This document shows positions 8,761-64,000 of a stretch of DNA of 64,000 bases, one piece after another; position 1 is the stretch's first letter; each line of letters begins with the position of its first letter. The notes beneath the pieces are model-generated. The model was not told the origin of the DNA, made no database searches, and was given only the letters and a program-made list of their open reading frames with translations. The translations under genes and the position numbers were made by a program. Source of the DNA: Amoebophrya sp. A120 (Eukaryota; Protista; Dinoflagellata); contig CAJINV010000004.1 in the NCBI GenBank assembly GCA_905178155.1, forward strand, positions 8,702,882-8,766,881, read 5' to 3'.

Positions 8761-11435
8761 TCACTGTAGATACTCTTCCCACATGGCCAACAGCTCGTCG
8801 ATCTTTTCCTTGGTAACGTGCTCCATGGTAAAGACGTGGATGTGCGCGTGCTTGTTCGCTTTGTCCTTGCTGGTCACCTGCACATACTCGGGGAAGGGCG
8901 CCAGATGGAACTTTCGGAACAGCTCCTTCGGCGGGAGGGGGCACATGACGCACATCACGCCCGGCGGGTGCCACGCGTCAAAGGGAAGCGCGTTTTTCCA
9001 CAAATTGATTTTTCTTGTACAAGATGTATTTGAGTCATTTTCGCCGTGGTGCCTCCTCTTGTTCAACTCCGAAACGAAATAATCCGCGGTTTCCAGGCAC
9101 TTCCTCGTTCTTTCCACCATGTTTTCGAAGAAATTCTTTTCCATCAACTCCTTCAGCACGATGAAGGGCGCTAGCCCGTTCCGGGACCCCGTCAACGTGG
9201 TGTCCGGCGAGCCGATCTCAACTGCAAATATGTCTGGGTCTGGAAACTTGTGGTGCTGACAGTTGCAACACAGGATGGCCGCTTGTACGGTATAACAGCA
9301 TGAGAAGCTTTCCTCGGCTTCTTCTGCATTCATTCGTAAATAAGTAGCACGACAAACTGTCTTCCAGCACGACAAAAAAAATCGCAAATCCTCTTCATGC
9401 ATCACAGATCCAGCTGTCCTTCAAATTTCGCATCACAAATCCAGACCCAGACATATTTGCAATGCATAGCCGATGTAAGCCACGTAGTGGTGCTCCCGCA
9501 TCTCCTTCATGCGGCACTGCCGCAGCAAGTAGATCGAGCAGGGGAACGGCGTCCCCAAGCGCTTGTGGAAACTCGTGGCCTGGGAATCGACGAGCTCGTT
9601 GCTCACGTCGCAGTCTTTGTAATAAACCCGGCCTTCCAGAACGTCATGGCTCCTCTCAGTCTCGTCGCCCGTGGAACTTGCGTCGCGAGCTTGCCTCGCG
9701 CGCGCGCGTCGCGTCTGCGTCGCGTTGCGACGCGCGCAGGCGCGCGCCTGCGCAACGCGCCAGCGCGACGCAGCAGCAGCAGACAGCAAAGTGTCTACCT
9801 CTTGCCGCGGCCCAACATGCAGTTCGGCTTCTCGCGTAGACGTTTTTGCATTCAAGAACGGCGTGATAAATCCCCCGAGGGCTGCGTCCAGGTGGATGAA
9901 AACCCGGTTCCGCTTTAACTGCAAATCCTTGTAGAGCACTTCCGCCAGTGCCGTTACGTCGTCGATCGCGCCCGTGCGGACGGACCCGCTGCACGCAACC
10001 AGGATAAAGGCCGGGGTGAAGGACGGGTGCTTTTTCTGCTGCGCAGCAGAAGTCGCAGAACAAACTCCAGTGTCACCGGCAACTCCAGGGTCAGAAGTCG
10101 TACAACAAACTCCATGATTCGGCAACCAACCACCAGCCGCGGAAGCCTTCTCCTGCACTTTTCGTATTACAATGAAAAATGCCCCCACCCCCGAACTTGA
10201 AAGCATTTGGATTGCAAACTTTTCCAAATGAAACATTCGCCCTCTTGCGTGTATCAGCATCACAGATTTCCGATCGTGAATGGCAAAAATTTGTATTGCA
10301 AACGATCCCAGCAAGAGCGGCGCCTGTCATGCAAGCGATGCAAAACACGACTAGAATCTGCATCAGAAAGATTCACGCTCCTTTCATGCATGACAAAAAG
10401 TTTTCATTTGGAAACTTCGCATCACAAATTTTTGCAATTTCAGGGGTGGGGGGCATTTTTCACTGTGATATTTCGCCGCAGGTCTTCCGGGTCCATCCGG
10501 CCCTCCGCGTCCACCTCGACCAGCAAAGCCTCCACGCCCACCAGGTCGGCGGCTTTGGTGACGCTGTAGTGCGAGTCCGCCGCGCAGAGGCAGAAGATAC
10601 GCAGCGGGGGACGCGCTGAGGCAGAAGATACGATCGCTGAGAGATCGGAAGACTTAATAGTAGTTGTACTAGTTTTCATCTTTTCTTCTTCAACATCTTC
10701 TCCTTCCTGTTGCCACATTTGCTGCAGCCAGCGGCGCGCGTTGTAGATCGCAAAGATGTTGGACTCCGACGAGCCGTGGGTAATGTACCCCCAGAACCTT
10801 TCCGGGTCCACCCGGTACAGCATTTTACACAGCAAGTTGATGGCCTGCACCTCCTCGTCAAATGTTTGTACGTACGCGTTTTTGCCCGTGTACGGGTCCC
10901 CCAAGTTGTTGCAGCAGTTGCCCAACAGGGGCCAGTACTTGGTTAAATCGTGCACGTCCATATTCATTTGGATGCCGAGGCAGTTTTTGCTCTCGGCAAC
11001 GTTTTTTTCGTAAAACTTGGTTGCAGACGGGTCGGCGGCGGGAGGTGTTCGTGAGAGCCGGTCGCGCTGCTCATCGCCCGGCTGCTTGGTACTAGTATCC
11101 CCGACTACTTCGCGGGCCTGGTCGGCAGTGCCAGTAAACAGGATAGCATTACCATTGCTGGTAGCGCAGCAACCTTTTGCCTCGTCCCCGTCGTTCATTT
11201 CATCGAGGTCGCAGGCAGCTTCTAAGGCACATTCCATGGGCGAGACGGTAGAGTCCGTCTTACGCAGCGTGAAGAAATTTCGACGCTTCAGCATGAATCC
11301 ACTCGAGGACACCAATTTGCCCCCAGTGAATTTTCCTCCCTTCATCTTGTCGCCCTGCTCTCCGAGGGGCTTGGACGAAGGGGCGGACTCGTCGTCGTTT
11401 TTCCGATTAGTGATTTTTGTTTTTGTGTTTTTCAT
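8761..11435 (-). CDS. Group II PLP-dependent decarboxylase (serine/histidine decarboxylase-like), copy 1; two non-canonical introns; start uncertain
   Basis: NNLGDPY, WGYITHGSSESN, SHYSVTKAA, GAIDD, IHLDAALGG, SFHK (PLP lysine), YIGSPDTTLTGSRNG; frame is restored after removing inserts 9216-9468 and 10165-10470 plus one direct repeat each. Confidence 0.88.
9216..9468 (-). mobile_element. Inverted-repeat introner (family I) acting as intron; also at 14978-15230 and 20740-20992
   Basis: 22-bp IR tgcaaatatgtctgggtctgga / tccagacccagacatatttgca; gccga direct repeat; absent from paralog 4; contains an in-frame stop. Confidence 0.9.
10165..10470 (-). mobile_element. Inverted-repeat introner (family II) acting as intron; also at 15927-16232 and 21689-21994
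   Basis: IR tattacaatgaaaaatgcccccacccc / ggggtggggggcatttttcactgtgata; tttcg direct repeat; absent from paralog 4 (28508-28520). Confidence 0.9.
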
Positions 11436-12758
11436 GTTTTTCAAATTTTTATGCTTTTACTATTTTTATCTTGTTATGCTGAAGAGGAATCTGTAACGAA
11501 AAACAGGCACTGTAGAATGCGAAAATTTGTGATGCAAAAGCAACAACTTTTACTGCACGCAGAGGATATTAGTCGCGGCGCTCCTCGTTGGCGACTGGAA
11601 CTGGGAGGGGCGCAGCTGTTCGTGGTGGTTGTTGCGGCGGCTCCTCGGCGGTGTGCTACTTAATTTCGAGATCGAAAAATTAGTAGTAAACCTAAAAAAA
11701 TTGCAAAAGTAAATTAGCTCTACAGCGTGGGGACGCTTGTACTGGAATAAATTTTCAAGGTGTAAGCCGTTACGTTGGGCTCATAACTCTTGGAAGGAAA
11801 ACGTGTGAACACCTTGACCCTCCAAGAGTAGAACGGTACAACGACGGACGAAGTAGGAAACTAGTGGGATACCACTTGAGTCGGGGCACCACTTTGTATC
11901 CTGCGTACAGACAGTATTCACGATGGTAGCACGACACTAGCATGATGCTACGACTACTAGACACGATACTACCATGCTACGACAGACGATACTTCTTGTG
12001 TCATACCGAATATAGGCCTAGTGCTGGCGTGAACGATGTGAGTACGATACCGATGACGATTCGGGACACGACTAGAGCTACTACCGATGGAGGGACGTTT
12101 TTGTGTCACTTTGTATCATTTCTTACAGGCAAAAGAACAACGGACCGCACCCATGGTTTTACTTTAGTATCGTCTTATATGTGAATTGTACTAGGTGCTT
12201 GCTCTTACTAGCAATTTCTTTTTCGTGAATTGTATTAGATCATCTGATTGCTCCAACAGAAATTCCTTTACATCAAGTGAGTCTTTCCCTACTGTAGGGT
12301 TGCGGAGTTCTTTTCATGCGAAGTAGTCTTTACGTTTTTCGGCAACTGTTAATAGCCGAGAACCCTTTGTAGACTCGACGCGTCCAAGAAAAAAACGGTG
12401 TTGTTGAATTGCAAAAAAAACCTATGGGCCGATGACTGTGTGCAGAGGATCTACGGGTCCCGACTTTCTCAAGCCAACCGACAGGCGCGCAGAATTCTTC
12501 GGCACGTAGCACCTTGCGCTTATTTTTCATTTTGGCAGTTTTCTTGTTGGTCCGGTGGTCTTTTCATTTTTGATCTTGATCCCTTCAGCAGGAAACACGT
12601 ACTCCTTGTCCTGCCAGGCCTGCTTCAGATCTCTTGCGGGATGGTCTTTTTTCTCTACTAGAAGTAAAACAAATCGAGGAACGACGTTGACTAGGCAGTA
12701 GATGAGAAGGTGATCTTCGTTCAACATGCTTTATTTCATAATACACGGATTATATTAA

Positions 12759-13929
12759 GGTCGCGCCCGGAGGGCGATATTGGTAACCAAATGCGTGCGC
12801 GAAAATCTAACCAGCGCGAAGGCCCACCAACCTTTTTCTAACATCGCAGCGGGGCATCCTTTCTAGCCCCCTGCATGACAAACTGGCCACCTGGCCGGGA
12901 AGGTATGTGGGTCATCGGGGGCTTCCGGATTCGCATTCAAAGCTTATCGCAGGACAACTACTGTCGCCCGCGTCGGCCCGCAGGCTCCTGCGATAAGCAT
13001 TGAAGGCGAAATCCGGTCTGCTATTTCGCAGCGGGCCATCCTTTCGATGCCCCTTGAAACAAAGTAGCCTTCTCTGAGGGCCACTATGCCGTCCCACATA
13101 ACGTTCTGCACGAGGGCACGCTGGCCAGGTAAAATGCATGAATTTCAAAAAGTGACGCACTTCTGTTCATTTCCGGCTGGCCTTTTGGGCAACCCAGATC
13201 GGGCTTTTCCAAGCGGGGGAAGGGTTCCAGTTTGCGACCTCAAAGAGGTCGAAAACCGTGCCCGTGTGACACACCTCCACAGGCTTGATAATTGGTTTTT
13301 CTTCGTCCAATCCTGGTGGTCCGGGCCTGCGGAAAATTTTGCGAACCCCTTTTGAGCGGCAATTTCCAAGCGGCTTTTGCTTTTTCAGAAAAAGTTGCCA
13401 TTTTCAATTTTCAAGCGGTTTCCGGGGGCTGGAGAAAATCGGTAAATTTTGTCGGCCGCTTATATGCTGCGAAAAATTGCATTTTTTCAACGCTTTTTTT
13501 CAATTTCCAAGCGGCTGGAGTTGCCCGGAGGTGGCGCGTTTTTCGCTACAAAACCCATCACACCGTCGGCCCTTGCCGAAAATGCAACTATCTTTTTTGA
13601 GATTCAGACCGGGCGGAGCTGCAAAATGCTCTTTTTTACCCTTTTCCCACTTGATAATTGCTGTTTTGGTTGCTTTCGGTTAAATTCCCAGAAATTCTGC
13701 CTGATCCGCTTTCTGAAGGCAAAACACACTTGGAAATGCCCGATTTTGCCAGTGATTGCATACTCCCGAATTCCTCCCATATGGCAACGGCAAAGCCTTC
13801 GCGCTGCGTTTGCGATGGATGAGCATCTCGCAAAGAGCGCTTTGCGCGCGGGCAAGCCCGCGCGCAAAGCGCTCTTGCGAGCGCTTGCGCACGCTTTGGT
13901 TACCAGATCACAATCCGAAGACGTAACCA
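12759..13929. mobile_element. Putative non-autonomous element with degenerate inverted ends (one per tandem unit)
   Basis: tggtaaccaaatgcgtgcgc (~12781) vs gcgcacgctttggttacca (~13887); internal tt(c)caagcgg repeats; perfect 21-bp-stem hairpin at 13833-13876. Confidence 0.45.
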
Positions 13930-14522
13930 AGTACAAGGAAAGAAACACGGCACATCGCTTCTCCATCGAGGTTGTAAGTGTGGAGGCCCCTGCGCTCCGT
14001 CCGGGCATGCGCCTGCTATCAATATTTCATGTTTCATTTCATCTACGCTTGTTACGACCTGAATATGGTTTTTTGATGACGGCTTTATTCGGACTCCTTC
14101 TACCGATGTATTTTGTCATCGGGCTTCTTGCCATCATACACGAGAGCATCAGTTCATCATACAACAGGGGGACATCAAATAAACCACATGCGCGAAAGAT
14201 TTTGCGAAATAAAAAGACACTTCATCTCTACCACCGGATGGCAAGTGGAAGTGGTTCTAGAAATAATTCTGTAGTAGACAAAAAACTTCGAAGCCTGCGG
14301 AGTGCGTCGACTCTGATTTTCTAACCTGCAACCATTTCGAAGAGGTGTGGTGTTGAAATTCAAATTGCGTTCGCGATGGAAGGTTCTTGTAAAATGAAAC
14401 GATCTCCATGGGTTCGTCATCGTCTCGGGGCACGAATTAAAATTGAATGATGTTTATGCGTGGCCTGGGCTTCTGCACCTTGTTCCAAAAATAGATACTT
14501 CAGGCACAATCGGTGTAGAAGT

Positions 14523-17197
14523 TCACTGTAGATACTCTTCCCACATGGCCAACAGCTCGTCGATCTTTTCCTTGGTAACGTGCTCCATGGTAAAGACGTG
14601 GATGTGCGCGTGCTTGTTCGCTTTGTCCTTGCTGGTCACCTGCACATACTCGGGGAAGGGCGCCAGATGGAACTTTCGGAACAGCTCCTTCGGCGGGAGG
14701 GGGCACATGACGCACATCACGCCCGGCGGGTGCCACGCGTCAAAGGGAAGCGCGTTTTTCCACAAATTGATTTTTCTTGTACAAGATGTATTTGAGTCAT
14801 TTTCGCCGTGGTGCCTCCTCTTGTTCAACTCCGAAACGAAATAATCCGCGGTTTCCAGGCACTTCCTCGTTCTTTCCACCATGTTTTCGAAGAAATTCTT
14901 TTCCATCAACTCCTTCAGCACGATGAAGGGCGCTAGCCCGTTCCGGGACCCCGTCAACGTGGTGTCCGGCGAGCCGATCTCAACTGCAAATATGTCTGGG
15001 TCTGGAAACTTGTGGTGCTGACAGTTGCAACACAGGATGGCCGCTTGTACGGTATAACAGCATGAGAAGCTTTCCTCGGCTTCTTCTGCATTCATTCGTA
15101 AATAAGTAGCACGACAAACTGTCTTCCAGCACGACAAAAAAAATCGCAAATCCTCTTCATGCATCACAGATCCAGCTGTCCTTCAAATTTCGCATCACAA
15201 ATCCAGACCCAGACATATTTGCAATGCATAGCCGATGTAAGCCACGTAGTGGTGCTCCCGCATCTCCTTCATGCGGCACTGCCGCAGCAAGTAGATCGAG
15301 CAGGGGAACGGCGTCCCCAAGCGCTTGTGGAAACTCGTGGCCTGGGAATCGACGAGCTCGTTGCTCACGTCGCAGTCTTTGTAATAAACCCGGCCTTCCA
15401 GAACGTCATGGCTCCTCTCAGTCTCGTCGCCCGTGGAACTTGCGTCGCGAGCTTGCCTCGCGCGCGCGCGTCGCGTCTGCGTCGCGTTGCGACGCGCGCA
15501 GGCGCGCGCCTGCGCAACGCGCCAGCGCGACGCAGCAGCAGCAGACAGCAAAGTGTCTACCTCTTGCCGCGGCCCAACATGCAGTTCGGCTTCTCGCGTA
15601 GACGTTTTTGCATTCAAGATCGGCGTGATAAATCCCCCGAGGGCTGCGTCCAGGTGGATGAAAACCCGGTTCCGCTTTAACTGCAAATCCTTGTAGAGCA
15701 CTTCCGCCAGTGCCGTTACGTCGTCGATCGCGCCCGTGCGGACGGACCCGCTGCACGCAACCAGGATAAAGGCCGGGGTGAAGGACGGGTGCTTTTTCTG
15801 CTGCGCAGCAGAAGTCGCAGAACAAACTCCAGTGTCACCGGCAACTCCAGGGTCAGAAGTCGTACAACAAACTCCATGATTCGGCAACCAACCACCAGCC
15901 GCGGAAGCCTTCTCCTGCACTTTTCGTATTACAATGAAAAATGCCCCCACCCCCGAACTTGAAAGCATTTGGATTGCAAACTTTTCCAAATGAAACATTC
16001 GCCCTCTTGCGTGTATCAGCATCACAGATTTCCGATCGTGAATGGCAAAAATTTGTATTGCAAACGATCCCAGCAAGAGCGGCGCCTGTCATGCAAGCGA
16101 TGCAAAACACGACTAGAATCTGCATCAGAAAGATTCACGCTCCTTTCATGCATGACAAAAAGTTTTCATTTGGAAACTTCGCATCACAAATTTTTGCAAT
16201 TTCAGGGGTGGGGGGCATTTTTCACTGTGATATTTCGCCGCAGGTCTTCCGGGTCCATCCGGCCCTCCGCGTCCACCTCGACCAGCAAAGCCTCCACGCC
16301 CACCAGGTCGGCGGCTTTGGTGACGCTGTAGTGCGAGTCCGCCGCGCAGAGGCAGAAGATACGCAGCGGGGGACGCGCTGAGGCAGAAGATACGATCGCT
16401 GAGAGATCGGAAGACTTAATAGTAGTTGTACTAGTTTTCATCTTTTCTTCTTCAACATCTTCTCCTTCCTGTTGCCACATTTGCTGCAGCCAGCGGCGCG
16501 CGTTGTAGATCGCAAAGATGTTGGACTCCGACGAGCCGTGGGTAATGTACCCCCAGAACCTTTCCGGGTCCACCCGGTACAGCATTTTACACAGCAAGTT
16601 GATGGCCTGCACCTCCTCGTCAAATGTTTGTACGTACGCGTTTTTGCCCGTGTACGGGTCCCCCAAGTTGTTGCAGCAGTTGCCCAACAGGGGCCAGTAC
16701 TTGGTTAAATCGTGCACGTCCATATTCATTTGGATGCCGAGGCAGTTTTTGCTCTCGGCAACGTTTTTTTCGTAAAACTTGGTTGCAGACGGGTCGGCGG
16801 CGGGAGGTGTTCGTGAGAGCCGGTCGCGCTGCTCATCGCCCGGCTGCTTGGTACTAGTATCCCCGACTACTTCGCGGGCCTGGTCGGCAGTGCCAGTAAA
16901 CAGGATAGCATTACCATTGCTGGTAGCGCAGCAACCTTTTGCCTCGTCCCCGTCGTTCATTTCATCGAGGTCGCAGGCAGCTTCTAAGGCACATTCCATG
17001 GGCGAGACGGTAGAGTCCGTCTTACGCAGCGTGAAGAAATTTCGACGCTTCAGCATGAATCCACTCGAGGACACCAATTTGCCCCCAGTGAATTTTCCTC
17101 CCTTCATCTTGTCGCCCTGCTCTCCGAGGGGCTTGGACGAAGGGGCGGACTCGTCGTCGTTTTTCCGATTAGTGATTTTTGTTTTTGTGTTTTTCAT
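14523..17197 (-). CDS. PLP-dependent decarboxylase, copy 2
   Basis: Same as copy 1 except F->I (TPFL->TPIL) from SNP at 15620. Confidence 0.88.
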
Positions 17198-20100
17198 GTT
17201 TTTCAAATTTTTATGCTTTTACTATTTTTATCTTGTTATGCTGAAGAGGAATCTGTAACGAAAAACAGGCACTGTAGAATGCGAAAATTTGTGATGCAAA
17301 AGCAACAACTTTTACTGCACGCAGAGGATATTAGTCGCGGCGCTCCTCGTTGGCGACTGGAACTGGGAGGGGCGCAGCTGTTCGTGGTGGTTGTTGCGGC
17401 GGCTCCTCGGCGGTGTGCTACTTAATTTCGAGATCGAAAAATTAGTAGTAAACCTAAAAAAATTGCAAAAGTAAATTAGCTCTACAGCGTGGGGACGCTT
17501 GTACTGGAATAAATTTTCAAGGTGTAAGCCGTTACGTTGGGCTCATAACTCTTGGAAGGAAAACGTGTGAACACCTTGACCCTCCAAGAGTAGAACGGTA
17601 CAACGACGGACGAAGTAGGAAACTAGTGGGATACCACTTGAGTCGGGGCACCACTTTGTATCCTGCGTACAGACAGTATTCACGATGGTAGCACGACATT
17701 AGCATGATGCTACGACTACTAGACACGATACTACCATGCTACGACAGACGATACTTCTTGTGTCATACCGATTATAGGCCTAGTGCTGGCGTGAACGATG
17801 TGAGTACGATACCGATGACGATTCGGGACACGACTAGAGCTACTACCGATGGAGGGTCGTTTTTGTGTCACTTTGTATCATTTCTTACAGGCAAAAGAAC
17901 AACGGACCGCACCCATGGTTTTACTTTAGTATCGTCTTATATGTGAATTGTACTAGGTGCTTGCTCTTACTAGCAATTTCTTTTTCGTGAATTGTATTAG
18001 ATCATCTGATTGCTCCAACAGAAATTCCTTTACATCAAGTGAGTCTTTCCCTACTGTAGGGTTGCGGAGTTCTTTTCATGCGAAGTAGTCTTTACGTTTT
18101 TCGGCAACTGTTAATAGCCGAGAACCCTTTGTAGACTCGACGCGTCCAAGAAAAAATCGGTGTTGTTGAATTGCAAAAAAAACCTATGGGCCGATGACTG
18201 TGTGCAGAGGATCTACGGGTCCCGACTTTCTCAAGCCAACCGACAGGCGCGCAGAATTCTTCGGCACGTAGCACCTTGCGCTTATTTTTCATTTTGGCAG
18301 TTTTCTTGTTGGTCCGGTGGTCTTTTCATTTTTGATCTTGATCCCTTCAGCAGGAAACACGTACTCCTTGTCCTGCCAGGCCTGCTTCAGATCTCTTGCG
18401 GGATGGTCTTTTTTCTCTACTAGAAGTAAAACAAATCGAGGAACGACGTTGACTAGGCAGTAGATGAGAAGGTGATCTTCGTTCAACATGCTTTATTTCA
18501 TAATACACGGATTATATTAAGGTCGCGCCCGGAGGGCGATATTGGTAACCAAATGCGTGCGCGAAAATCTAACCAGCGCGAAGGCCCACCAACCTTTTTC
18601 TAACATCGCAGCGGGGCATCCTTTCTAGCCCCCTGCATGACAAACTGGCCACCTGGCCGGGAAGGTATGTGGGTCATCGGGGGCTTCCGGATTCGCATTC
18701 AAAGCTTATCGCAGGACAACTACTGTCGCCCGCGTCGGCCCGCAGGCTCCTGCGATAAGCATTGAAGGCGAAATCCGGTCTGCTATTTCGCAGCGGGCCA
18801 TCCTTTCGATGCCCCTTGAAACAAAGTAGCCTTCTCTGAGGGCCACTATGCCGTCCCACATAACGTTCTGCACGAGGGCACGCTGGCCAGGTAAAATGCA
18901 TGAATTTCAAAAAGTGACGCACTTCTGTTCATTTCCGGCTGGCCTTTTGGGCAACCCAGATCGGGCTTTTCCAAGCGGGGGAAGGGTTCCAGTTTGCGAC
19001 CTCAAAGAGGTCGAAAACCGTGCCCGTGTGACACACCTCCACAGGCTTGATAATTGGTTTTTCTTCGTCCAATCCTGGTGGTCCGGGCCTGCGGAAAATT
19101 TTGCGAACCCCTTTTGAGCGGCAATTTCCAAGCGGCTTTTGCTTTTTCAGAAAAAGTTGCCATTTTCAATTTTCAAGCGGTTTCCGGGGGCTGGAGAAAA
19201 TCGGTAAATTTTGTCGGCCGCTTATATGCTGCGAAAAATTGCATTTTTTCAACGCTTTTTTTCAATTTCCAAGCGGCTGGAGTTGCCCGGAGGTGGCGCG
19301 TTTTTCGCTACAAAACCCATCACACCGTCGGCCCTTGCCGAAAATGCAACTATCTTTTTTGAGATTCAGACCGGGCGGAGCTGCAAAATGCTCTTTTTTA
19401 CCCTTTTCCCACTTGATAATTGCTGTTTTGGTTGCTTTCGGTTAAATTCCCAGAAATTCTGCCTGATCCGCTTTCTGAAGGCAAAACACACTTGGAAATG
19501 CCCGATTTTGCCAGTGATTGCATACTCCCGAATTCCTCCCATATGGCAACGGCAAAGCCTTCGCGCTGCGTTTGCGATGGATGAGCATCTCGCAAAGAGC
19601 GCTTTGCGCGCGGGCAAGCCCGCGCGCAAAGCGCTCTTGCGAGCGCTTGCGCACGCTTTGGTTACCAGATCACAATCCGAAGACGTAACCAAGTACAAGG
19701 AAAGAAACACGGCACATCGCTTCTCCATCGAGGTTGTAAGTGTGGAGGCCCCTGCGCTCCGTCCGGGCATGCGCCTGCTATCAATATTTCATGTTTCATT
19801 TCATCTACGCTTGTTACGACCTGAATATGGTTTTTTGATGACGGCTTTATTCGGACTCCTTCTACCGATGTATTTTGTCATCGGGCTTCTTGCCATCATA
19901 CACGAGAGCATCAGTTCATCATACAACAGGGGGACATCAAATAAACCACATGCGCGAAAGATTTTGCGAAATAAAAAGACACTTCATCTCTACCACCGGA
20001 TGGCAAGTGGAAGTGGTTCTAGAAATAATTCTGTAGTAGACAAAAAACTTCGAAGCCTGCGGAGTGCGTCGACTCTGATTTTCTAACCTGCAACCATTTC

Positions 20101-20284
20101 GAAGAGGTGTGGTGTTGAAATTCAAATTGCGTTCGCGATGGAAGGTTCTTGTAAAATGAAACGATCTCCATGGGTTCGTCATCGTCTCGGGGCACGAATT
20201 AAAATTGAATGATGTTTATGCGTGGCCTGGGCTTCTGCACCTTGTTCCAAAAATAGATACTTCAGGCACAATCGGTGTAGAAGT

Positions 20285-25900: not shown

Positions 25901-26036
25901 TGGAAGGTTCTTGTAAAATGAAACGATCTTTCGTCTTGGGGCACGAATTAAAACTAAATGATGTTTATGCGTGGCCTTGGCTGCTGCACCTTGTTCCAAG
26001 AATACTAGATACTTCAGACACAATCGGTGTAGAAGT

Positions 26037-29000
26037 TCACTGTAGACATTCCTCCCACATGGCCAACAGCTCGTCGATCTTTTCCTTTATCAAAGTGAAA
26101 AAAGCCCCCACCCCCTATCGGAAACGGAAGATGCGCGAATTTGTGATGCTGTATTTGAGTACACAAATCAACTTGTATTGCTGGAAAGCCAAGAGACGAA
26201 GCTGCGGCCTAAATTGCAGGCAATCTGTCATGCTGTTTCCCACTTCCAGTTGCCTCGTGTCATCCTGGAGCTGCAAGGCTTTCCCACGCTAGACAGCACT
26301 ACAGTCCGCATCTTTTGCCTTCGAGCATCACAGAGCTCATTTGTGACCACAAATCTGCATCACAGATTTCCGTTTTAATATGGGGAGGGGGCATTTTTCA
26401 TTGTCATATCCTTGGTAACGTGTTCCATGGTGAAGACGTGGATGTTATCAAATGCAAATATGTCTGGGTCTGAAAGGATGCGAACTTGTGATGCATCTTG
26501 CGGACCGTACAACAATCTGTGTTGCGTGACTTGCAAAAGGTGCCCATTTCTGTCCATGCTGAGAGGGTATTTCTCTTGCAGAACAGGCATCACCGAGGGG
26601 CTGCAGATCCTGTGATGCTAGCCCCTGCATTCCAGACTTGGTGGAGCTTGGATAAACTGCATCACAAATCTCCGAATCTTCCAGACCCAGACAATTTTGC
26701 ATTTGATATATGTGGCCGTGCTTCTCCGCCTTGTCCTTGCTGGTCACCTGCACATACTCGGGGAAGGGCGCCAGATGGAACTTTTGGAACAGCTCCTTCG
26801 GCGGCACGGGGCACATGACGCACATCACTATCCCACAGAGAAAAGCTGGCAGGGCATAATTTTTGTATAATGCAAAAATAAACACACAGAAAAATCTGTC
26901 ACGGGCTGCCTCATAGCATGCTGGTTAGGATACGCAATACAGATTTTTTTGTGTATTTATTTTTGCATTACAAATGTGGCCCGCCAGTTTTTTTCTGTGT
27001 GATAATCACTCCCGGCGGGTGCCACGCATCGAAGGGAAGCGCGTTTTTCCACAAGTTTATTATGCATTGCAAATATGTTGTCTGGGTCTGGAAACCTGTG
27101 ATGCTGCGTGACGTATCATGAGGAGGTCACAAGTGCTGGCTCAGCATGACAAGTTTCTCAGCCTTTGCGTGTTGCCTATTCTGCATGACAAACTGCGTTT
27201 CTGCATGACAGAAAAGCGGGGCTCTTGGGTAGCCTGCATGACAGATTTAAGAGTCATGCCAGACAAGCATGACAAACATGCATTCTTCCAGACCCAGACA
27301 TTTTTGCATTTGATATTGATTTTTCTTGTACAAGAAGATGAATTTGAGTCAACATCGCGACCACACAAGAACTTCTCGCCGTGGTGCCTCCTCTTGTTCA
27401 ACTCCGTAACAAAATAATCCGCGGTTTCCAGGCAGGTCCTCTATGCAATGCAAAAGCATCGCACTCGTGTTGCAATCATGCATTACAAATCTTTTTCTGA
27501 GGACAAATCCGCATTACAAAAATTTCCTTTCTCATGCTGAGGAAATTTGTAATGCATTTGTACGAGTACGATACTTTTGCAGTGCATATCCTCGTTCTTT
27601 CCACCATGTTTTCGAAGAAATTCTTTTCCATCAACTCCTTCAGCACGATGAAGGGCGCTAGCCCGTTCCGGGACCCCGTCAAGGTGGTGTCCGGCGACCC
27701 GATGTAATCGACGTAGTGGTGCTCCCGCATGGCCTTCATGCGGCACTGCCGCAGCAAGTAGATCGAGCAGGGGAACGGAGTATCAAATGCAAAAGCGCCT
27801 TGGTCTGGAAGATTGCAACTTGTCATGCTGTTTTTGGACTCTAAAAAAATTTGTATTGCATGACCAGCAAGAGGGGTGCAATTTGTGCTACACGGACAGG
27901 GCATTTCTCATGCGGAAGGTGCATCAGGAAGCCCTCTAAAAGCCTGCGGTGCTAGGGCATGCATTACAGGCGTCATGGGTCATGCAAAATATGCATGACA
28001 AACCTGGCAATCTTCCAGACCCAGACATTCTTGCAGTTCATACGGCGTCCCCATACGCTTGTGGAAACTGGTGGTCTGGGAATCGACGAGCTCGTTGCTC
28101 ACGTCGCAGTCTTTGTAGTAAGGCCGGCCTTCCAGAAGGTCGTGGCCCGTTGAACAAGTGTCTACCTCTTGCCGCGACCCAAGATGCAGTTGCAGTTCAG
28201 CTTCTCGTGTAGACGTTTTGGCATTCAAGAACGGCGTGATAAATCCCCCGAGGGCTGCGTCCAGGTGGATGAAAACCCGGCTCCGCTTTAACTGCAAATC
28301 CTTGTACAGCACTTCCGCCAGTGCCGTCACGTCGTCGATCGCGCCCGTGCGGACGGACCCGCTGCACGCAACCAGGATAAAGGCCGGGGTGAAAGAGAAC
28401 TCGTGCTCCTCCTGCTGCGCAGCAGAAGTCGTACAACAACTTCCCGTGTCGCCGGCAACATCGTGATGATTCGGTAACCAACCACCAGCCGCGGAAACCT
28501 TCTCCTGCACTTTTCGCCGCAGGTCTTCCGGGTCCATCCGGCCCTCCGCGTCCACCTCGATTAACAAAGCCTCCACGCCCACCAGGTCGGCGGCTTTGGT
28601 GACGCTGTAGTGCGAGTCCGCCGCGCAGAGGCAGAAGATACGAAGTTGGGGACGGCAATAGGAAGAGTTGTTGATAGTTGTACTAGTTTTCATCTCTTTT
28701 TCAACATCTTCTGCTTCCTGTTGCCACATCTGCTGCAGCCAGCGGCGCGCGTTGTAGATCGCAAAGATGTTGGACTCGGACGAGCCGTGGGCTATGTAGC
28801 CCCAGAACCTTTCCGGGTCATCAACCCGGTACAGCATTTTACACAGCAAATTGATCGCCTGCGCCTCCTCGTCAAAGGTTTGGACGTACGCGTTTTTGCC
28901 CGTGTACGGGTCCCCCAAATTGTTGCAGCAGTTGCCCAACAGGGGCCAGTACTTCGTTAAATGGTGCACGTTGAGATTCATTTGGATCCCGAGGCAGTTT

Positions 29001-29167
29001 TTGCTCTCGGCAACGTTTTTTTCGTAAAACTTGGCTGCGGACGGGTCGGCGGCGGGAGGTGTTGGTGACGAGAGCTGGTCTCGCTGCTCATTCTTGTCAG
29101 GCCACTCGGTTGTACTATCCTCGACTACCTCGAGGGGGGCAACGAAAGAACGACGGACCGCACCCAT
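26037..29167 (-). CDS. PLP-dependent decarboxylase, diverged paralog 4 with six introner introns
   Basis: Same motifs; ATG at 29167, TGA at 26037-26039; collinear with copy 1 once six TAT...ATA inserts are removed. Confidence 0.85.
26088..26408 (-). mobile_element. Introner family II
   Basis: tatcaaagtgaaaaagccccc...gggggcatttttcattgtcata; direct repeat tcctt. Confidence 0.88.
26446..26708 (-). mobile_element. Introner family I
   Basis: tatcaaatgcaaatatgtctgggtctg...cagacccagacaattttgcatttgata; repeats gatgt/tatgt. Confidence 0.88.
26829..27004 (-). mobile_element. Introner family III (nearly full-length hairpin)
   Basis: tatcccacagagaaaagctggc...gccagtttttttctgtgtgata plus inner IR; direct repeat atcac. 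Confidence 0.88.
27061..27315 (-). mobile_element. Introner family I
   Basis: tatgcattgcaaa...gtctgggtctggaa / ttccagacccagac...tgcatttgata; repeats tttat/ttgat. Confidence 0.88.
27442..27588 (-). mobile_element. Introner family IV
   Basis: tatgcaatgcaaaagcatcgcactcgt / acgagtacgatacttttgcagtgcata; direct repeat tcctc. Confidence 0.88.
27781..28042 (-). mobile_element. Introner family I
   Basis: tatcaaatgcaaaa...ggtctggaa / ttccagacc...tgcagttcata; repeats cggag/cggcg. Confidence 0.88.
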
Positions 29168-31893: not shown

Positions 31894-33646
31894 ATTTCTT
31901 TTGAAGTACTTGCAACCCTTTCCGAAGTAGTAGCAGATGGCTCGTGCTGTCCCCTCGCGGGGGTGCTGAGGTCTAATAAAGTCGTTGAAACATTATCTCC
32001 GTGATAAGGAGTGGTATTAAAAACGACAAACTAGCGGCTCATAGAAATTTCTGCCCTGTTGGTTTTTGTGGAAGTGGACCACGGTCGTTAGTTGAATTGT
32101 ATACTGGACGGTAGTTGTGCCACGAACATCTTCGTGGGTACAACTAAGTACCTACTCCCGCGGGTTCCGCGTAGTGGTAGTACATGAGGAGGACAGTAGG
32201 GAAAATAAAAAACATTGGAAAAAATTCTCCGCTTCTGATCTTACCCTTGTTCAGCTCAGTTGCAATTTTGATCCACCGCACAAATTTCCTTTTCAACATC
32301 TAACAAAGGAACTCAATTTTTCTTTTTTCGACCCCGTTTGAGCGCCGCAGCAGCGTGACGCCGTGCTAAATTTTGAACGCGCACGCGCAGGGAAGATGCG
32401 TGGCCAGTTTCGGCGGCCTCAGAGAACCTGGTCGCCCGACCCTTGTGGCCGAGCACTGCGAATGCAGCACGAGGGGGGCGAAGCACGCACGGCGGAACGA
32501 AGGATCGCCCGGAGTGCTGCAACGAGCGCTGCCCGCATGAGCGACGGGCGGGTGCCTCGAGGATGAGCCGTGACCTGCGGTGGCACGCGGGGCAGCGTTT
32601 CAGCTCGTATGCCGTGGATGCCCACGGCAAAATTCCGGAACGCCATGCCGCGCAGCTGTTCCATGGCGCGGACGTCAGTAGAAGCTAGTAACCCGACCTG
32701 CCTGCTGCGCTTGGATCACAAAACAGCGTCAAGGGGGGGCGCCTTGCGTCCGAAACCGACTGCCCCGGGGGGCGCGGGCTTGCCCGAATTCCAAACAGGC
32801 GGCCGGCCCTGCGCGCATCCGCAAGAAAGTCGCGCGCCGCTCCCGGAACGCAACATCGGCCGCCCGGCGCCGCGGGCCGTGCAGGAAGATATGGCCTTGG
32901 TCTCACGGATGAATAACGCCTCCCGCGGTAGGGGGCCGCGCCGCCTTCGGCCGTCGTGCTTCTTGCCGCACGCATCCAGAGGCCAAGGCGCTTGCCGCAG
33001 CGGGGGCGGGCCGCCAGCAGCCCGCGGCGCGGGTTGCGGCGTGGTTGCCCGGGGCCAGATTCCAGCGCGCAAGTCGATCACGCACCCGGTTCGCCACGCC
33101 CGGTCCGTCGCGTTGCCGATCCTCCGCGCTAGGAGCCGACCGGGTCCACCCCCGTGGTTGCTGCGGTGCTTTGTGGGTGCGTAGCATTTTGCGAAGCCGC
33201 TTGGACATGGGTCCGGCTGCGGATTATGCAGCGCCGCTGCCTCCGGCCCGTTTTCCATGAATTGGGCATGGTAGGATGCATCACAGGAGGACTTTGTTCA
33301 TTTTTCAATTTTTTCAAGAACTTCCCAGATTTTCACAATATGGTGGAATCTGGATGATTGTGCTACGAGCCACGGTCCGCGCCAGCAGTTCCTGTATTTT
33401 CTTTTATCCCAACAGCCAATCCAATACCATGCAATGCTTATTTTTCCTATTTTTTGACTTTTTCAAATTTTGAAAAATTCGTGCGATGATCATACCCCTG
33501 AATTTTCTCGCCAATATTGGCAATGAAAATGGTCTACTGTATGAAATTGCAGGATCTTTTCAGTTTATAATGCGGAATATATTTTTAGTGATAAATTCAC
33601 GGCATTTTTGAGCTGTGAAAAAATTTCAAAATTTTTTCAATGTCAA

Positions 33647-34654: not shown

Positions 34655-34674
34655 CGGCACCCCTGACGGGACTC
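34655..34674 (+). promoter_or_regulatory. Putative tRNA primer-binding site (tRNA-Arg-like)
   Basis: cggcacccctgacgggactc directly follows the LTR; reverse complement gagtcccgtcaggggtg-ccg resembles a tRNA T-stem/acceptor 3' end, with CGG instead of TGG. Confidence 0.55.
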
Positions 34675-34869
34675 TCACCCAATGAAGTCCTTATGCATCA
34701 CTTACAAAACGAAAACTTTTTCAAATATTTCCACCCACCCAATTTCATAGGAAGCAACTTACTTACCTCTAAAGCACTACTTACTGTCGGAGCACCACAG
34801 CGGAGCGCTAAAAACTTTTTTCTTTTTTCACACTTTTGGGGCGTTCAGATCCAGAAAAGAAATCCCGAT

Positions 34870-39503: not shown

Positions 39504-39530
39504 AGAAAGCACTCGCATGTTGTTGTCCGC

Positions 39531-57236: not shown

Positions 57237-60200
57237 ATGGGCGGGTCGCTGGCTTCCTACGCCTGCCCCAAGCGGTCCGACCGGGGGCCGACCACGGGGT
57301 ATATCGATGGCTGCTTTGACATCATGCACAGCGGCCACTACAACGCGATTCGGCAAGCGAAGCAGCTCTGCGACAGGTTGGTCGTCGGGGTGCACTCCGA
57401 TCCCGAGATCGCGAAGAATAAGGGGCCGCCGGTAATGAATCAGCAGGAACGGGTATGATCCACGGTGTGAAAATATGCTCATAGCACCGCCTTCGTGCAG
57501 TAAGAAGTATCGAGTACTACTTGTTCGGTTCTTGCCAAAGGATAAGATTTTCGATTTTGTATCGCACATTTTTTTCTACCGCTGAAAAAAGAATACATGT
57601 TAAAAATTATCCAACCTTCGCTATCAAGACTCGGCGGTGCGTTGGAGGCTTTCTTCGCATAGGATAAGTCTACGGCCTTCTGGAGCATATCAAGTGGATA
57701 GACAAAATTGTTTACGACGTGCCGTATTCTCCTGGCATCGAGCTCCTGGACCGCGCGGGGGCGGACTTCTGCGTTCACGGTAAAATTTGTTTCTGTGAAG
57801 ATGTTCGTTTTCTTTAAGAAAACGAACACGAGAAGAAGAAGTTGCACTAATAGTGCAACTTCTTGTGAAGGTGCAGAAACTTGCAACTTGGATTTCGGAC
57901 GAGGTTGTCAAGCATGAAACTGTTTCAAGAATAACGAAAACGCAGGGGACGATATGCCTGTCAATTCGGAAGGGGTCGGTGCGTACGATGCGATCCGCGA
58001 CGCCGGGATATCCAGAGCTACTCGACAACTTCCTCCCTTTATTTGCCATGCCGGAGCAGCTGTAAAACCGTAGCTGGTGATGCGAGAACTCTTGCATGGA
58101 AAATTCATGTTCTGAAATGTGCAACAACCAAGGGCCGCATCAAGCTGTCTTCAGCACGATAAATGCGGAAGTGAGGGTAGTTTTGTTCAACGTGATACCA
58201 GAGACTGAAAATAGTGAAGCGAACCGAGGGCGTGTCCACCACGGATTTCATTGGGAGGCTGCTTTCGCTTTCCAAGTAAGAAATTTATTTTGAAAGCAGT
58301 TTGTCTTTGTCATGCTGAACAGATGTAGCACATGTTCTACTTTTACCGCGGCCCATGATGCGTGGGTAATATGTTTCCAAGCTAGGATGTTAGGTGGAGA
58401 TGAATTTTTGTTGCTCGTCAAGTTATTGTCATCGGTATTTGCAATACCAATTTTTTTCTCACCAGGTCGCACCACGAGCGCAGTAGCCCGATCGCACCGC
58501 AGACCCCGCCAGAGAGGAGAACGCTGTCGCAGCAGGGCGTGATATCCTGATGGGAAATCCTCGCACAAGTTGTGATGCGCCAGAACATGAACGTGTAATG
58601 CGGCAGAACGAACATGCGAGACATTATTACACTTCCCCTTTAGCCTGCAACTACTGTACGCTTTTTCAAAGTCCCTTCCGACGCATTACAACGAGATGGT
58701 GAAGATTTTGCCCTTGCATACTTGAAGCTGCTTGCCTCGACAAGAAGAATATCGGAGTTTTCCCGGCCTCACAAAAGCCCCTCGCCGACGGACACTGTGG
58801 TAAGTAAGTATGTTAAAGGTTTTATTTGTCATTCGGTAAGACCATGCCTCTAGAAGTACTTTGTCATGTCAAATCATACACGGTAGAAACACAAGAATAC
58901 TCCGAGGTCTACTGTGACGGCGCGTTCGACATGTTCCACCTCGGCCATGCCACGACGCTGAAAAAGGCGAAGGAACTCGGCAGCTTCCTGATAGTCGGGG
59001 TTTACGACGACGACACAGTGAATGAGATCAAGGGCGCAAACTACCCCATCGCGACTTTGCAGGAGCGGGTGCTCTGCGTGTGCAGCTGCAAGTGGGTCGA
59101 CGAGGTACTTGTACTTCTAGAGAATTTTGCTTCAGCAGGAGCAGCTTCGCTACTTTGCGTTTGCGAGGACGTGTAAGGTGCAATAAAGATAAACCCCTTG
59201 TAGTTCTTCATCTTTTGAAAGAACCTGTTATCCACGATGAAACATCTTCAACACCAACGCGCAAAAAAACATTACAAAAAGGTTATTATCGGCGCTCCCC
59301 TCGCCGTATGAACTGCAGAAGTATCGTACTCGTATAAATGCATTACAAATTTTCTCAGCATGAGAAAATCTGTAATGCGGATTTACCTTGAGAAAAAGAT
59401 TTGTAATGCATGAGTGCAATACGAGTGCGATTCTACACAGGATACGCCGTGACCAGTGACATGATCCACACGCTGAACATCAATCTGGTGGTCAACGGAA
59501 GCCACATATCAGATGCAAAAATGTCTGGGTCTGGAAGAGTGCAACGTGTGATGCTGCATTTGGATGCTGGAAAAAATCTGTATTGCATGAGCAGCAAGAG
59601 GAGTCAACTATGGCTACGCGGACAGGGCATTTGTCATGCGGGATGCGCATCAAGAAGCGCTCAAAAACTCTGTGATGCTAGGGGATGCACCACAGACATC
59701 ATGGATCATGGAAATGGTGCATGACAACCCAGACATATTTGCATTTGATACCACACGAGCACGCACTACTTCCGCGAGGCCGGGTTCGGTACCGACGTTC
59801 TGTCACTCGAAAACACGGACATGGACCCCTACCGGGTACCGAAGCGGCTGGGGCTCATGCGCATATCAAATGCAAATATGTCTGGGTCTGGAAACTTGTA
59901 AAAATGCTGCGTTGGCAATAGTGAGCGCTCGGTAATGCACAGCCAAGCATGAGAAATTTCTTTGCGTTGCGTTTTTCGCATGAATTTGCATGACAGGCAA
60001 AAGGGTCTCTTCTTGGACACGCATCACAAACTTTTTGGTCATGCCAGACAAGCATGACAGGTCTCGCAATCTTCCAGACCCAGACATTTTTGCATTTGAT
60101 AGCGCACCGTGAAGAGCGACTACCCGGAGCTGAACACCAGCGTGATTGCCAAACGCGTAGCGGAGAACCGGCTGGCCTACATCAACCGCAATAACGATCG

Positions 60201-60524
60201 GGAAAAGCGGGAAATCGACTACTATAAGGACAAGCAAAAGTCTATGAACTGCAAATATGTCTGGGTCTGGAAACTTGTGATGCTACTTTCTGAAGGCTCG
60301 GCGCACTGCGTTACGCAGCCACGCATGACAAGTTTCTGAGCTCCTATGTGTTTCGCTTCTCGGGTGACAAACTGCGTTTTTGCATGACAGGGAAGGAGCT
60401 GCTTTGCCGCTCATGCATGACAGATTCAAGAGTCATGTGAGACAAGCATGACAAACTTGCATTCTTCCAGACCCAGACATATTTGCACTTGATAAAGTCC
60501 AAGGAGTTTCGGGCGGAGAATTGA
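57237..60524 (+). CDS. PCYT2: Ethanolamine-phosphate cytidylyltransferase (two CTP-transferase domains), 12 exons
   Basis: DGCFDIMHSGH...VGVHSD...KGPPVM, DFCVHGDD, KRTEGVSTTD, DGAFDMFHLGH...KWVDEVIIGAP, DPY; GT-AG introns 57780-57945, 58276-58465, 58800-58906, 59105-59281; seven non-canonical introns. Confidence 0.9.
58543..58720 (+). mobile_element. Degenerate introner intron
   Basis: tatc...cata flanked by cgtga/cttga; removal gives GVKLLASTRRISEF. Confidence 0.7.
59307..59444 (+). mobile_element. Introner family IV
   Basis: Similar to the reverse complement of 27442-27588; direct repeat cgccg. Confidence 0.85.
59507..59750 (+). mobile_element. Introner family I
   Basis: Family I IRs; direct repeat ccaca; interior similar to 27781-28042. 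Confidence 0.9.
59864..60101 (+). mobile_element. Introner family I
   Basis: Family I IRs; direct repeat gcgca. Confidence 0.9.
60243..60494 (+). mobile_element. Introner family I
   Basis: Family I IRs; direct repeat aagtc; interior similar to 27061-27315. Confidence 0.9.
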
Positions 60525-61162: not shown

Positions 61163-64000
61163 ATGGCGAGGCTGCGGCGGGGGTGGTGGGCACGACGATT
61201 CGGCGTAGGAGCTGCAGTAGGGGCCACAGCTTTGGTCCTTGTGGGAGATCCTGCAAACCAACTTGTCTCCGCCGCTGCTCCCTCCGTTCTTCTGCCGCCA
61301 GAGTTCCGCGCGTGGCACAACAACCGGGGAACGACGGGCGAAGAGAGTGCAGGAACGCAGGCAACACGGCCTGATGAACATCAGCGTGGAGTTGATAATG
61401 AAGACCCAAGCAGGGCTAGAAGGAAGGAACGCAAACGAAGCAGCGCGAAAATTCCTTCTAATCCAGGTCGGTCATCAGCAACTGAAGTAGACCATGAGGA
61501 ACAGAAAAATCTCCGCTCGGGGACCACGACGCCACCGCACGGTGCAGCTCCAGAAGCAGGTGGGAAAATAAATAAAGCCGCACCAGCACGTGAAGAACAA
61601 GGGAGCAATCATCTCTCGTCGGCGAAGAGGGATAAACAACTCGTTCGCACGAGAAACAAGCCCCCTCAACGGCCGAATAGGACGGTCAGCACGACCCGTC
61701 CTGCTGCGACCTCCGTGCAACCGAAATCTTCAAAAATCGCAGATGCGCATAAAAAATCGCCGCAGAACATCAACGGGTCGAAATCAAGAAGGATTTCCGC
61801 TGCCAAAAACCTCCCCCTCGCCCGCGCCTTGCTGAAGAGCGGTAGAAGTGACGAGAACCAGGGAGATGCTGGTGTTGTCAGGCATGAGGAGAGTTCTCTC
61901 GTCCGCGCGATGCCAGCGGCACGGGCGGACCGGAAGCAGAAGAATCGGTTGGAGCCGAAATCGCTCATGCAGACGGGAACCGGCAGCGACGTCGAGTGGA
62001 CGGTTATGGAACCGAAAATTAATTATGGGTTTTGTTGTAGTGGTGCTACGCGCCGTAAGTGCTTCGGGGCGAAAGATCCCCGCGCGCTAAGTACTTCGCT
62101 CCTTAAGTGCCTCGCCCCTTAGGTGCTTCGCACTTAAAGTGCTTCGCCCATTAAGTGCCTCGCTCCTTAAGTGTTTCGCGCCTTAAGTGCTTCGCTCCTT
62201 AAGTGCTTCAGTGTTTCGCGCCTTAAGTGCTTCGCGCCTTAAGTGCTTCGCGCCTTAAGTGCTTCGCTCCTTAAGTGCTTCGCCCCTTAAGTGCTTCGCC
62301 CCTTAAGTGCTTCGCCCCTTAAGTGCTTCGCCCCTTAAGTGCTTCGGCGATGAAGACCCTCCCCCCTAAAGTAATTCGCTCCTGCTTAAGTCTTTCGCTT
62401 AGGTGCTTACGTAGTGCTTCCTGCAAGTAGCGTTTCGCGTAGGTGGTTCCTCCCTCAAGTGGTGCGCCGCTTCTGTACTGCTTCGCTCAAGTAGTGCCCT
62501 GTTTGAGTACTTGCTCGCCCAGCTGGTGCTCCGCTTGCGTACTGCTTCACTTGAGGGCTTCGCTTACGTGCTTCGCCTGGGTGCTTCGCTTAAGTGCTTC
62601 GCCTGAGTAAGTGCTTCGCTTAAGTGCTTTGCTCAATCGCGCCCCTGAGAAGCGTCGCCCGACAAGTGGTTCGTCGCTTAAGTAGTGCGTCGCTTAAATA
62701 GTGCGTCGCTTAAATAGTGCGTCGCTTAGCTGGTGCGTCGATCAAGTAGTGCCCCGCTTAATTAGCGCGTCGCTTAAGTAGTGCCCCTCTTAATTAGCGC
62801 GTCGCTTAAGTAGTGCGTCGCTTAAGTAGTGCCCCGCTTAAGTAGTGCGTCGCTTAAGTAGTGCGTCGCTTAAGTAGTGCGTCGCTTAAGTAATGCGTCG
62901 CTTAAGTAGTGCGAGTGCCACCTCGCCTCAGTAGTACTGCCTCGCCTAGCTGCGCGTCGCAGATGTGGCGCCCCGCGTAAATGGTTCGCTTCAGTGCCTT
63001 TCTCAAGTGCTCTGTCTATGGCGTTCGAAATTCGGTGCTTCGCTTTTTTGCCGAAGACGACAACAACCTTAATTTTCCCTTCCACAACCGTCACCAACCT
63101 CGCGTCTCGTGGTCGCATCCAGCGGTTGAATAGCGACATCTCGCAGGAGAGGCAATCCGCAGAAGAAAGCGACCGGGAGTGCCGCGCGGAGCAGCAGAGC
63201 ATGCAGTCGGAGGTCATGGAAATGCAGAACAGCCTTGGCGAGATATCATTTCTAAAAACGTCCCCACTACATAGTTGTCATGCAAATCTGCATGCTCAAA
63301 ATGTTTCTCATGCGGAGCCCCATGACAAGCATTTTCTAGGCGCGTTTTGGAATTTGTAGTGCTCCAATCAGCATAATAGGCTAGATCTGTGATGCTGCTG
63401 AACAGGCTAAACAGGATTACACTACGAGGCCAAGCTTGTCATGCGCAACACCCAAAGCTGACAGATTTGTCTAGCAGATTTTCCATCTTGGCTATGGGGT
63501 AGGTACGTTTTTGCTCAGGATGCGAGATCATGATCCAGTTGGCCGACGAAGAGGCGAAGCAGGGAAAAGCCCAGGGCAACAAGATAAGTAAGTGGCTTAC
63601 CACAGTGAGGTTAAGGTGCGGGAGGACTGGCTACTTTGTGATCATGCACTTACTTTTACACTTCTACTTCCACCCTGAAGAACCTATTGGCTTTGAAGAG
63701 TTCTTTGTGTGATGTTGCTCGCTCTTGCACAGATAGATTCAAGCGTATAATATCTGTCCCCACCTAAATCCTTTTTCTTTCCACACGATACGATGACGCG
63801 CACCAGAACAACGCGGACCCGTCGAGTACGAGTGAAGCGTCCGAGAAATGCAACATCGCCGGCGTGCGGGAAAAGCTGCGGCTCGCGGAGAGGCAGTTGG
63901 ACGAGAATCGGAAAGAGGAGAAGCGGCTCGAGGCGGTTTGCAGTGCGGAAAAGCAACACGCCGACGATCAGACGGCGCTGCTGGAGAAGAGTTCCGGGTC
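61163..64000 (+). CDS. Hypothetical protein (N-terminal hydrophobic segment, low-complexity linker, coiled coils); 3'-partial, multi-exon
   Basis: Exon to ~62004 joins in frame to 63092-63243 (WTV-TNLASRGRIQRL) and 63528-~63587 (GEIMIQLADEE); further coiled-coil exon from ~63790. Confidence 0.6.
62005..63086 (+). mobile_element. Introner-type intron expanded by internal satellite
   Basis: tatggaaccgaaaattaa / ttaattttcccttccaca; repeats acggt/accgt. Confidence 0.7.
62085..62915. repeat. 16-bp minisatellites (cttaagtgcttcgcnc then cgcttaagtagtgcgt)
   Basis: Visible tandem units at 62085-62346 and 62675-62912 with a degenerate transition. Confidence 0.92.
63244..63522 (+). mobile_element. Degenerate introner intron
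   Basis: tatcatttctaaaaacgt...acgtttttgctcaggatg; direct repeat cgaga; removal restores frame. Confidence 0.75.

Follow-up and report, generated by a model that had tools for sequence, protein, structure and literature searches.

The window, which is the whole stretch of 64,000 nucleotides of Amoebophrya sp. A120 DNA analysed here, contains genes interrupted by inserts that run from TAT to ATA between short direct repeats. The question that this locus raises is whether these inserts leave the transcript, at which bases, and by which signals. More than 60% of the introns in Amoebophrya A120 and A25 have been reported to be removed without GT-AG. We collected the inserts, compared them with transcript contigs and with a related assembly, and weighed the possible removal mechanisms.

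Architecture of the inserts

The inserts come from a scan for inverted arms enclosed by a perfect 5-bp repeat, a further, less strict scan, and manual curation. When the tandem copies are counted once, there are 17 distinct TAT...ATA-type inserts of 138 to 321 nt in three genes (Table 1): two in the tandem decarboxylase copies, six in their diverged fourth copy, seven in the ECT (ethanolamine-phosphate cytidylyltransferase) gene, and two in the gene at 63 kb. The first-pass annotation had counted about 15 inserts in four gene loci; the inserts are confirmed, but the loci reduce to three genes, one of which is present as three plus one copies. Read in the gene direction, the TAT...ATA ends are exact in 14 of the 17 (9216 ends in AGA, 63244 ends in ATG and 63585 starts with TAA). 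The flanking 5-mers agree at all five positions in 10/17 inserts, at four in another four, and at three, two and one positions in one insert each. Twelve inserts fold far better than shuffled sequences (z −4.2 to −8.0), and the fold of those at 57454, 58009, 58543, 63244 and 63585 is not beyond that of the shuffles (z −1.5 to +2.4). Seven inserts belong to a main family, two others are 86% identical, two have only their ends in common, and the remainder are singletons or decayed.

None of the 17 inserts has GT-AG or GC-AG ends in any of six exact registers. An in-frame GY..AG pair is found within 12 nt at 7/17, although its use would alter the length of the protein. For each of the 15 inserts tested, retention of that insert alone results in an early stop or a frameshift. 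Removal of the element plus one repeat restores the conserved protein in ECT and in the decarboxylase, as had been claimed for every case, but the gene at 63 kb has no homolog that a protein search could find, and there only an open frame is regained.

The window elements carry the inverted repeat published for A120 (TAT, seven variable bases, AAA), which the decayed copies lack. Flanking repeats with five (10/17) or four (4/17) matching positions agree with the published 3–5-nt direct repeats; the elements are repeated in families, and their depth in run X5 is very high. The decayed copies fit the class of non-repeated non-canonical introns described by Farhat 2021. The inserts are, as the first-pass annotation had recognized, the transposon-derived non-canonical introns already published for A120.

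Table 1. Coordinates of genes, introns and inserts in the window (repeat, flanking 5-mer or number of matching positions; removal by length, removal follows from the summed exon length)
Feature	Position	Strand	Repeat	Remarks
Decarboxylase copy 1	8761..11456	−		predicted gene; two inserts; copies 2 and 3 at +5762 and +11524
Main-family introner, ends AGA	9216..9468	−	TCGGC	also 14978-15230 and 20740-20992; empty in copy 4
Introner	10165..10470	−	CGAAA	also 15927-16232 and 21689-21994; empty in copy 4
PLP-dependent decarboxylase, diverged copy 4	26030..29167	−		predicted gene; start codon uncertain; six inserts
Introner	26088..26408	−	AAGGA	empty in copies 1-3
Main-family introner	26446..26708	−	4/5	empty in copies 1-3
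Introner	26829..27004	−	GTGAT	empty in copies 1-3
Main-family introner	27061..27315	−	4/5	empty in copies 1-3
Introner	27442..27588	−	GAGGA	empty in copies 1-3
Main-family introner	27781..28042	−	4/5	empty in copies 1-3
ECT gene	57237..60523	+		12 exons, 386 aa; 7 non-canonical and 4 GT-AG introns
Decayed TAT...ATA insert	57454..57666	+	1/5	no significant fold; intron 57453-57670, unique junction
GT-AG intron	57780..57945	+		ECT model
Decayed TAT...ATA insert	58009..58197	+	3/5	transcript joint 58006-58201 permits registers 0, −1, −2
GT-AG intron	58276..58465	+		joint 58275-58466
Decayed TAT...ATA insert	58543..58720	+	4/5	no predicted end stem; removal by length
GT-AG intron	58800..58906	+		ECT model
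GT-AG intron	59105..59281	+		ECT model
Introner	59307..59444	+	CGCCG	86% like 27442-27588; removal by length
Main-family introner	59507..59750	+	CCACA	internal orientation opposite to 27781; removal by length
Main-family introner	59864..60101	+	GCGCA	removal by length
Main-family introner	60243..60494	+	AAGTC	257 nt skipped by transcript
Introner, ends ATG	63244..63522	+	CGAGA	gene without homolog; removal restores open frame
Predicted decayed insert, TAA...ATA	63585..63790	+	2/5	core plus 5 nt removed leaves open frame

The decarboxylase tandem unit is present as three 5,762-bp copies (window 8561-25846), of which copy 2 deviates at 5 positions from copies 1 and 3, which show no difference between them; this triplication is either a very recent amplification or an assembly artefact. 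Copy 4 is eight insertions apart from the tandem copies at a divergence of only about 6%. A search with a copy-4 exon found no A120 protein of 217–692 aa corresponding to this copy, and a test of the register at the insert at 63585, where K-D-A is predicted as against K-N-A, N-D-A or D-D-A, turned up no protein that matched. The decarboxylase copies and the 63-kb gene, which together carry ten inserts, could be silent. An 83-bp hairpin with ATT...AAA ends, outside the TAT...ATA class, lies inside a perfect 5-bp repeat in the intergenic region at 12929-13011 (and at +5762 and +11524).

The elements are transposon copies inserted into exons

The 5-bp repeat is a target-site duplication, since the paralogous empty sites hold a single copy of the 5-mer. 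This was observed at 8/8 decarboxylase sites, seven of them identical to one flank and one with a single difference. As a comparison set we used 133 loci (243.5 kb) from a related assembly with the same terminal motif (contig prefix JACKZZ01). A perfect 5-bp repeat was present at 87 of 118 pattern-anchored pairings in these loci, mis-paired ends included. In a scan that made no use of the motif, TAT...ATA appeared in 178/200 hits at repeat length 5 and in 1/13 at length 7, and an element finder recovered 104 elements in 40 loci and none in Markov-resampled controls; the TAT...ATA elements are therefore not due to chance. The base composition of the repeat, and thus of the target, is flat and unbiased in 160 perfect repeats, and the preference for A at repeat position 5 that we had seen in the window was gone in this set.

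Terminal inverted repeats, a constant target-site duplication, empty sites, the lack of coding capacity and insertion in either orientation are all found here, as in MITEs, and we conclude that the window inserts are non-coding copies of terminal-inverted-repeat transposons inserted into exons. The combination of a 5-bp repeat and a TAT...ATA hairpin, which the first-pass annotation had proposed as one rule, holds as a signature of insertion but fails as a rule of removal, given that ECT introns without the repeat or without the stem are also removed. The scan of 13 ORFs of the window revealed no transposase family, the window elements contain no integrase-like ORF, and the terminal motif had no match in viral contigs. 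The enzyme responsible for the insertion may be an integrase-type DDE transposase acting in trans, for which a Ginger-like lead is given by Gozashti 2025 (PMC12130899); the proposed pathway would begin with its insertion of an element into an exon, an event that duplicates 5 bp and occurs in either orientation.

Two TAT...ATA elements with perfect 5-bp repeats, L021:570-1051 and L059 (697 nt), are two to three times the usual length and may be nested insertions; a stretch of L059 matches window 26088-26410 at 93%.

The assembled ECT transcript lacks all seven inserts

Exon 1 of the ECT gene matches, without any difference, a protein that carries the name Amoebophrya sp. A120 at NCBI, and the spliced ECT model with 11 introns agrees with this annotated protein, P0004, at 386/386 residues; P0004 is not independent of the transcripts, from which it was annotated. 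The A25 ortholog is collinear and gap-free across all seven insert sites, with 285 identical residues. The transcript evidence comes from sets X1 and X4, which are assembled contigs rather than reads and are presumed to be RNA. Record 9 of X4 is a contig of 1,778 nt (depth 118), the length of the 11-intron model is also 1,778 nt, and all listed anchors match. All seven ECT inserts, plus 5 nt each, are absent from this contig; of the seven non-canonical junctions, three can be read off directly, and for the other four the removal is deduced from summed lengths only. The element and 5 nt are thus missing, to the base, from the ECT transcript contig. Three of the seven removed inserts are decayed, two of them without a predicted end stem and one without a repeat. 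Retention in transcripts, which would have contradicted the first-pass annotation, is not what we observed for these 7 of the 17 inserts, and the ordinary GT-AG introns that it had described in the same gene are indeed present, four of them beside the seven inserts.

In run X5, one contig spans 56600-59335 with three ECT inserts in place, and an exact skip was found at none of the 15 joints listed (274 further joints exist). The raw RNA reads of run X8, which carries the same species label, covered element ends only and no exon. One X1 contig keeps the GT-AG intron 57780-57945, yet skips the non-canonical intron at 58008; this may hint at an order of removal, although contigs do not show single molecules.

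The position of the cut

When the repeat is perfect, the placement of the cut by an aligner is arbitrary. Intron 57453-57670 has lost its repeat, so its junction cannot slide, and it fixes the register. The ECT transcript joins 57452|57671 without any possible slide (X4 record 9, positions 490|491), and contigs from a second sample (S1; X1 records 1-3) show their break at exactly these positions. This intron consists of one base, TAT...ATA and four bases; that is, the 5′ cut precedes TAT by 1 nt and the 3′ cut follows ATA by 4 nt (−1/+4). The other decayed ECT introns permit registers 0 to −2 (joint 58006-58201) and 0 to −3 (protein at 58543). We consider it likely that a single fixed register, N-UAU...AUA-NNNN, applies, being established at one unique junction, compatible at two more and extrapolated to the rest. 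Of the first repeat, bases 1–4 would then stay in the message, and of the second repeat only base 5, as seen at the unique junction.

In the related assembly, frames called separately on the two flanks agreed with the retention of one 5-nt repeat at 75 of 83 callable elements among 247 (with a codon model built from the same loci); these calls replaced a first open-frame test that was too lax to discriminate. The polarity of mismatches between the repeats did not separate the registers. Looking for decayed introns in the gaps between coding blocks gave a noisy result (16 vs 5 and 9 of 107 gaps), and 78/90 known elements had GT-AG solutions by chance.

Published annotations bear on the same point. 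In Table S4 of Farhat 2021 (PMC7789003), 9/9 listed A120 classes begin with NT and 9/9 A25 classes begin with TT, although these classes are biased in that aligners favour GT/CT and AG/AC. In Gozashti 2025 (PMC12130899), seven large A120 families together have 1,994 annotated starts, of which 45% are gt or at, 5% are gc and 5% are ga. The NT starts and the gt plus at share fit the −1/+4 register, and both hinge on aligner choices; the logos of Farhat 2021 may already show part of the register. It is conceivable, but in our opinion improbable, that the cut floats within the repeat and is set by structure, the −1/+4 junction being one case among several. The gc and ga starts would agree with such a floating cut, as would the legend of Fig. 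3 in Farhat 2021, which calls the splice sites variable relative to the hairpin. Against it stand the prevalence of gt and at and the NT start of all nine top A120 classes, the arbitrary placement that perfect repeats impose on aligners, and the three decayed ECT introns, which permit only −1, 0 to −2, and 0 to −3.

Signals in oriented copies

Of the 247 unique elements of the related assembly, 203 were oriented by the codon model, whose held-out strand and frame calls were correct in 27/27 and 38/38 cases. The four largest of 26 clusters were split between the two orientations (30/43, 20/17, 10/11 and 10/7); since large families occur in both, the internal sequence holds no strand-specific signal that is needed. 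Both orientations of the main family are removed in ECT.

The bases near the ends are almost constant in the 203 copies: A at +3 and at −7 in 203 each, T at +2 and at +4 in 201 each, T at −6 in 200, and A at −5 in 198. Deviations were more numerous at +4/−5/−6 (10) than at +2/+3/−7 (2; p 0.04, for a hypothesis formed on the window). This asymmetry is a weak result with ascertainment limits, the element finder having tolerated one end deviation only, and the invariance of TAT and ATA in young copies can stem from the needs of the transposase. The first base and the last four bases of the intron are free, given the flat composition of the repeat, and no excess of G/G or A/C first-last pairs was detected (13 and 12 of 160; table p 0.05). 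A predicted preference for G at +5 and for a purine before the A at −7 failed, with 45 vs 27 the other way. The four GT-AG donors of ECT also have T at +2 and A at +3. Two of the removed introns show no significant fold and a near-zero predicted TAT:ATA pairing; because these two stem-less ECT introns are removed, a long stem is not required.

How the elements could be removed

These results lead us to favour, by a little, the existence of a second A120 splicing code, N-UAU...AUA-N4, that would do without terminal dinucleotides, without the direct repeat and without a long stem, would act in both orientations, would undo the 5-bp duplication exactly, and would possibly be read by a U1-less spliceosome. 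To the whole explanation, in which a relaxed major spliceosome removes transposon-derived elements from RNA at a likely fixed register, we give an even chance. Under this explanation, U+2/A+3 would be the remnant of a GUA donor, the invariant A at −7 would be the branch point, and the 3′ site would be counted from this A and not read as AG. The terminal stem of young copies may help to pair the ends, replacing the U1 snRNA. The near-palindromic ends would present the same signals in either orientation, as seen for the main family in ECT; after fixation, the repeat and the stem would decay and the short end motifs alone would persist. In A120, U2, U4, U5 and U6 were found and U1 was not (Farhat 2021, PMC7789003); Amoebophrya sp. 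Kv has GT-AG introns and U1. A U2-type spliceosome removes transposon-derived non-GT/AG introns in Fritillaria (PMC13326754; PMC11282704). When the elements are examined for U2-type features, the A at −7 is invariant, the GT-AG or GC-AG ends are missing from the exact registers, and the context favours neither a purine at −8 nor G at +5. Known step-2 chemistry does not easily accommodate an intron whose first and last bases are free.

A dedicated machinery, non-spliceosomal or second, could instead bind a 3-bp UAU/AUA clasp and cut at fixed spacers, as has been proposed for the nonconventional introns of Euglena; it would give the same register, and we regard it as the main rival, possible but clearly less probable. 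The free terminal bases with a flat repeat composition, the absence of an orientation bias and the failed prediction on +5G and the branch context would all be in line with it, and the Euglena code N3-CDG...CH'G-N5-6, whose donor spacer is rigid, works by the same logic (PMC12501133). Pairing alone, however, does not predict the 10 vs 2 asymmetry of the deviations, the predicted TAT:ATA pairing is near 0 in two introns that are removed from RNA, and T+2/A+3 is shared with the GT-AG donors of ECT. A hairpin with a short repeat is a known setting for template switching by reverse transcriptase, and the skips could be such switches at short direct repeats in genes that are broken. We consider this very unlikely, as intron 57453-57670, without repeat or fold, is skipped to the base in two samples, and the conserved 386-aa protein needs all seven removals. 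Just as remote is the excision of the elements from DNA in some life stage, in the manner of the internal eliminated sequences of ciliates: TA-rich ends and the precise loss of the element with one repeat would suit it, but the X5 contig over 56600-59335 retains three inserts, no exact skip occurs among the 15 X5 joints listed (there are 274 others), and the GT-AG introns are likewise missing from the X4 contig that lacks the inserts.

If true, the fixed −1/+4 cut with U+2, A+3 and A−7 of the relaxed-spliceosome explanation predicts the branch position, the mutations that would block removal, and corrected intron borders. Palindromic transposon ends would allow the invasion of exons at little cost. 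If A120 does use a second code, a TA-ended transposon in an exon would be harmless from the start, and one rule would explain tens of thousands of non-canonical introns, paralleling the Euglena code by convergence.

Other elements in the window

The region 33647-54646 looks like a giant LTR-like retroelement. This 21-kb element has direct terminal repeats of 1,008 bp (98% identical), CG at both ends and GTCAA on both sides, and the inverted complement of the start of the repeat lies just inside the right repeat. Its long intron-free ORFs encode an SF1 helicase resembling UPF1, a domain of the exonuclease III/AP endonuclease type and a product with a weak match to dual-specificity phosphatases, and the ORF 48430-50493 resembles reverse transcriptases (an Atlas lead of 0.80 only). 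No integrase was recognised in it, and it contains no TAT...ATA element. A 5-kb element (48-5084) has 431-bp direct repeats (99%) around a 1,231-aa minus-strand ORF, for which no convincing family match was obtained. In addition, an intron-free minus-strand ORF of 616 aa, which has a zinc knuckle and weakly matches SPOUT methyltransferases, is located at 30142-31992, and a degenerate 16-bp tandem array occupies 62000-62960, between two genes.

Comparison with known systems

The A120 introners of Farhat 2021 (PMC7789003) are the same elements in the same organism. That paper describes RNA-supported elements of about 240 nt that occur together with GT-AG introns in the same gene, with inverted repeats of TAT, seven variable bases and AAA, direct repeats of 3–5 nt (5 bp in Fig. 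S19), and an intron border that is variable or unknown. Our results differ in that the repeat is 5 bp by the empty sites and the border is placed at −1/+4 from decayed introns. The A120 families in Gozashti 2025 (PMC12130899) are TIR DNA elements like those of the window. Family 38 is listed there under Ginger, with the remark '5-bp TSD, TA/TA Termini'; it has an integrase-like ORF, which the window elements lack. In the 22 of 58 A120 rows considered, the automated TSD calls range from 2 to 5, the origin of the splice sites differs between families, and no single register is given. The remark of the first-pass annotation that the removal mechanism of Amoebophrya introners had yet to be resolved holds for the literature searched (subscription papers lie outside it), in which we found no paper with a fixed register or a removal mechanism. 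The elements, the TAT ends and the 5-bp repeats have already been published; what is gained here is a sharper positional rule and not a new system.

The introns of Fritillaria borealis (PMC13326754; PMC11282704) are similar in being transposon-derived, with TIR and TSD, non-GT/AG and genome-wide. They differ in their dominant AG-AC/AG-AT ends, in the conservation of U1 and in a demonstrated dependence on the spliceosome, whereas A120 has free ends and no detected U1. The nonconventional introns of Euglena (Nomura 2025, PMC12501133) share with those of A120 the complementary trinucleotides at fixed spacers, the free terminal bases, a proposed MITE origin and the coexistence with GT-AG introns. 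The lineages are unrelated, and the Euglena code, N3-CDG...CH'G-N5-6|R, was tested genetically, whereas the A120 rule, N1-TAT...ATA-N4, is drawn from sequences and contigs. The A120 ends do not carry the euglenid signature, and the two systems are alike in logic only.
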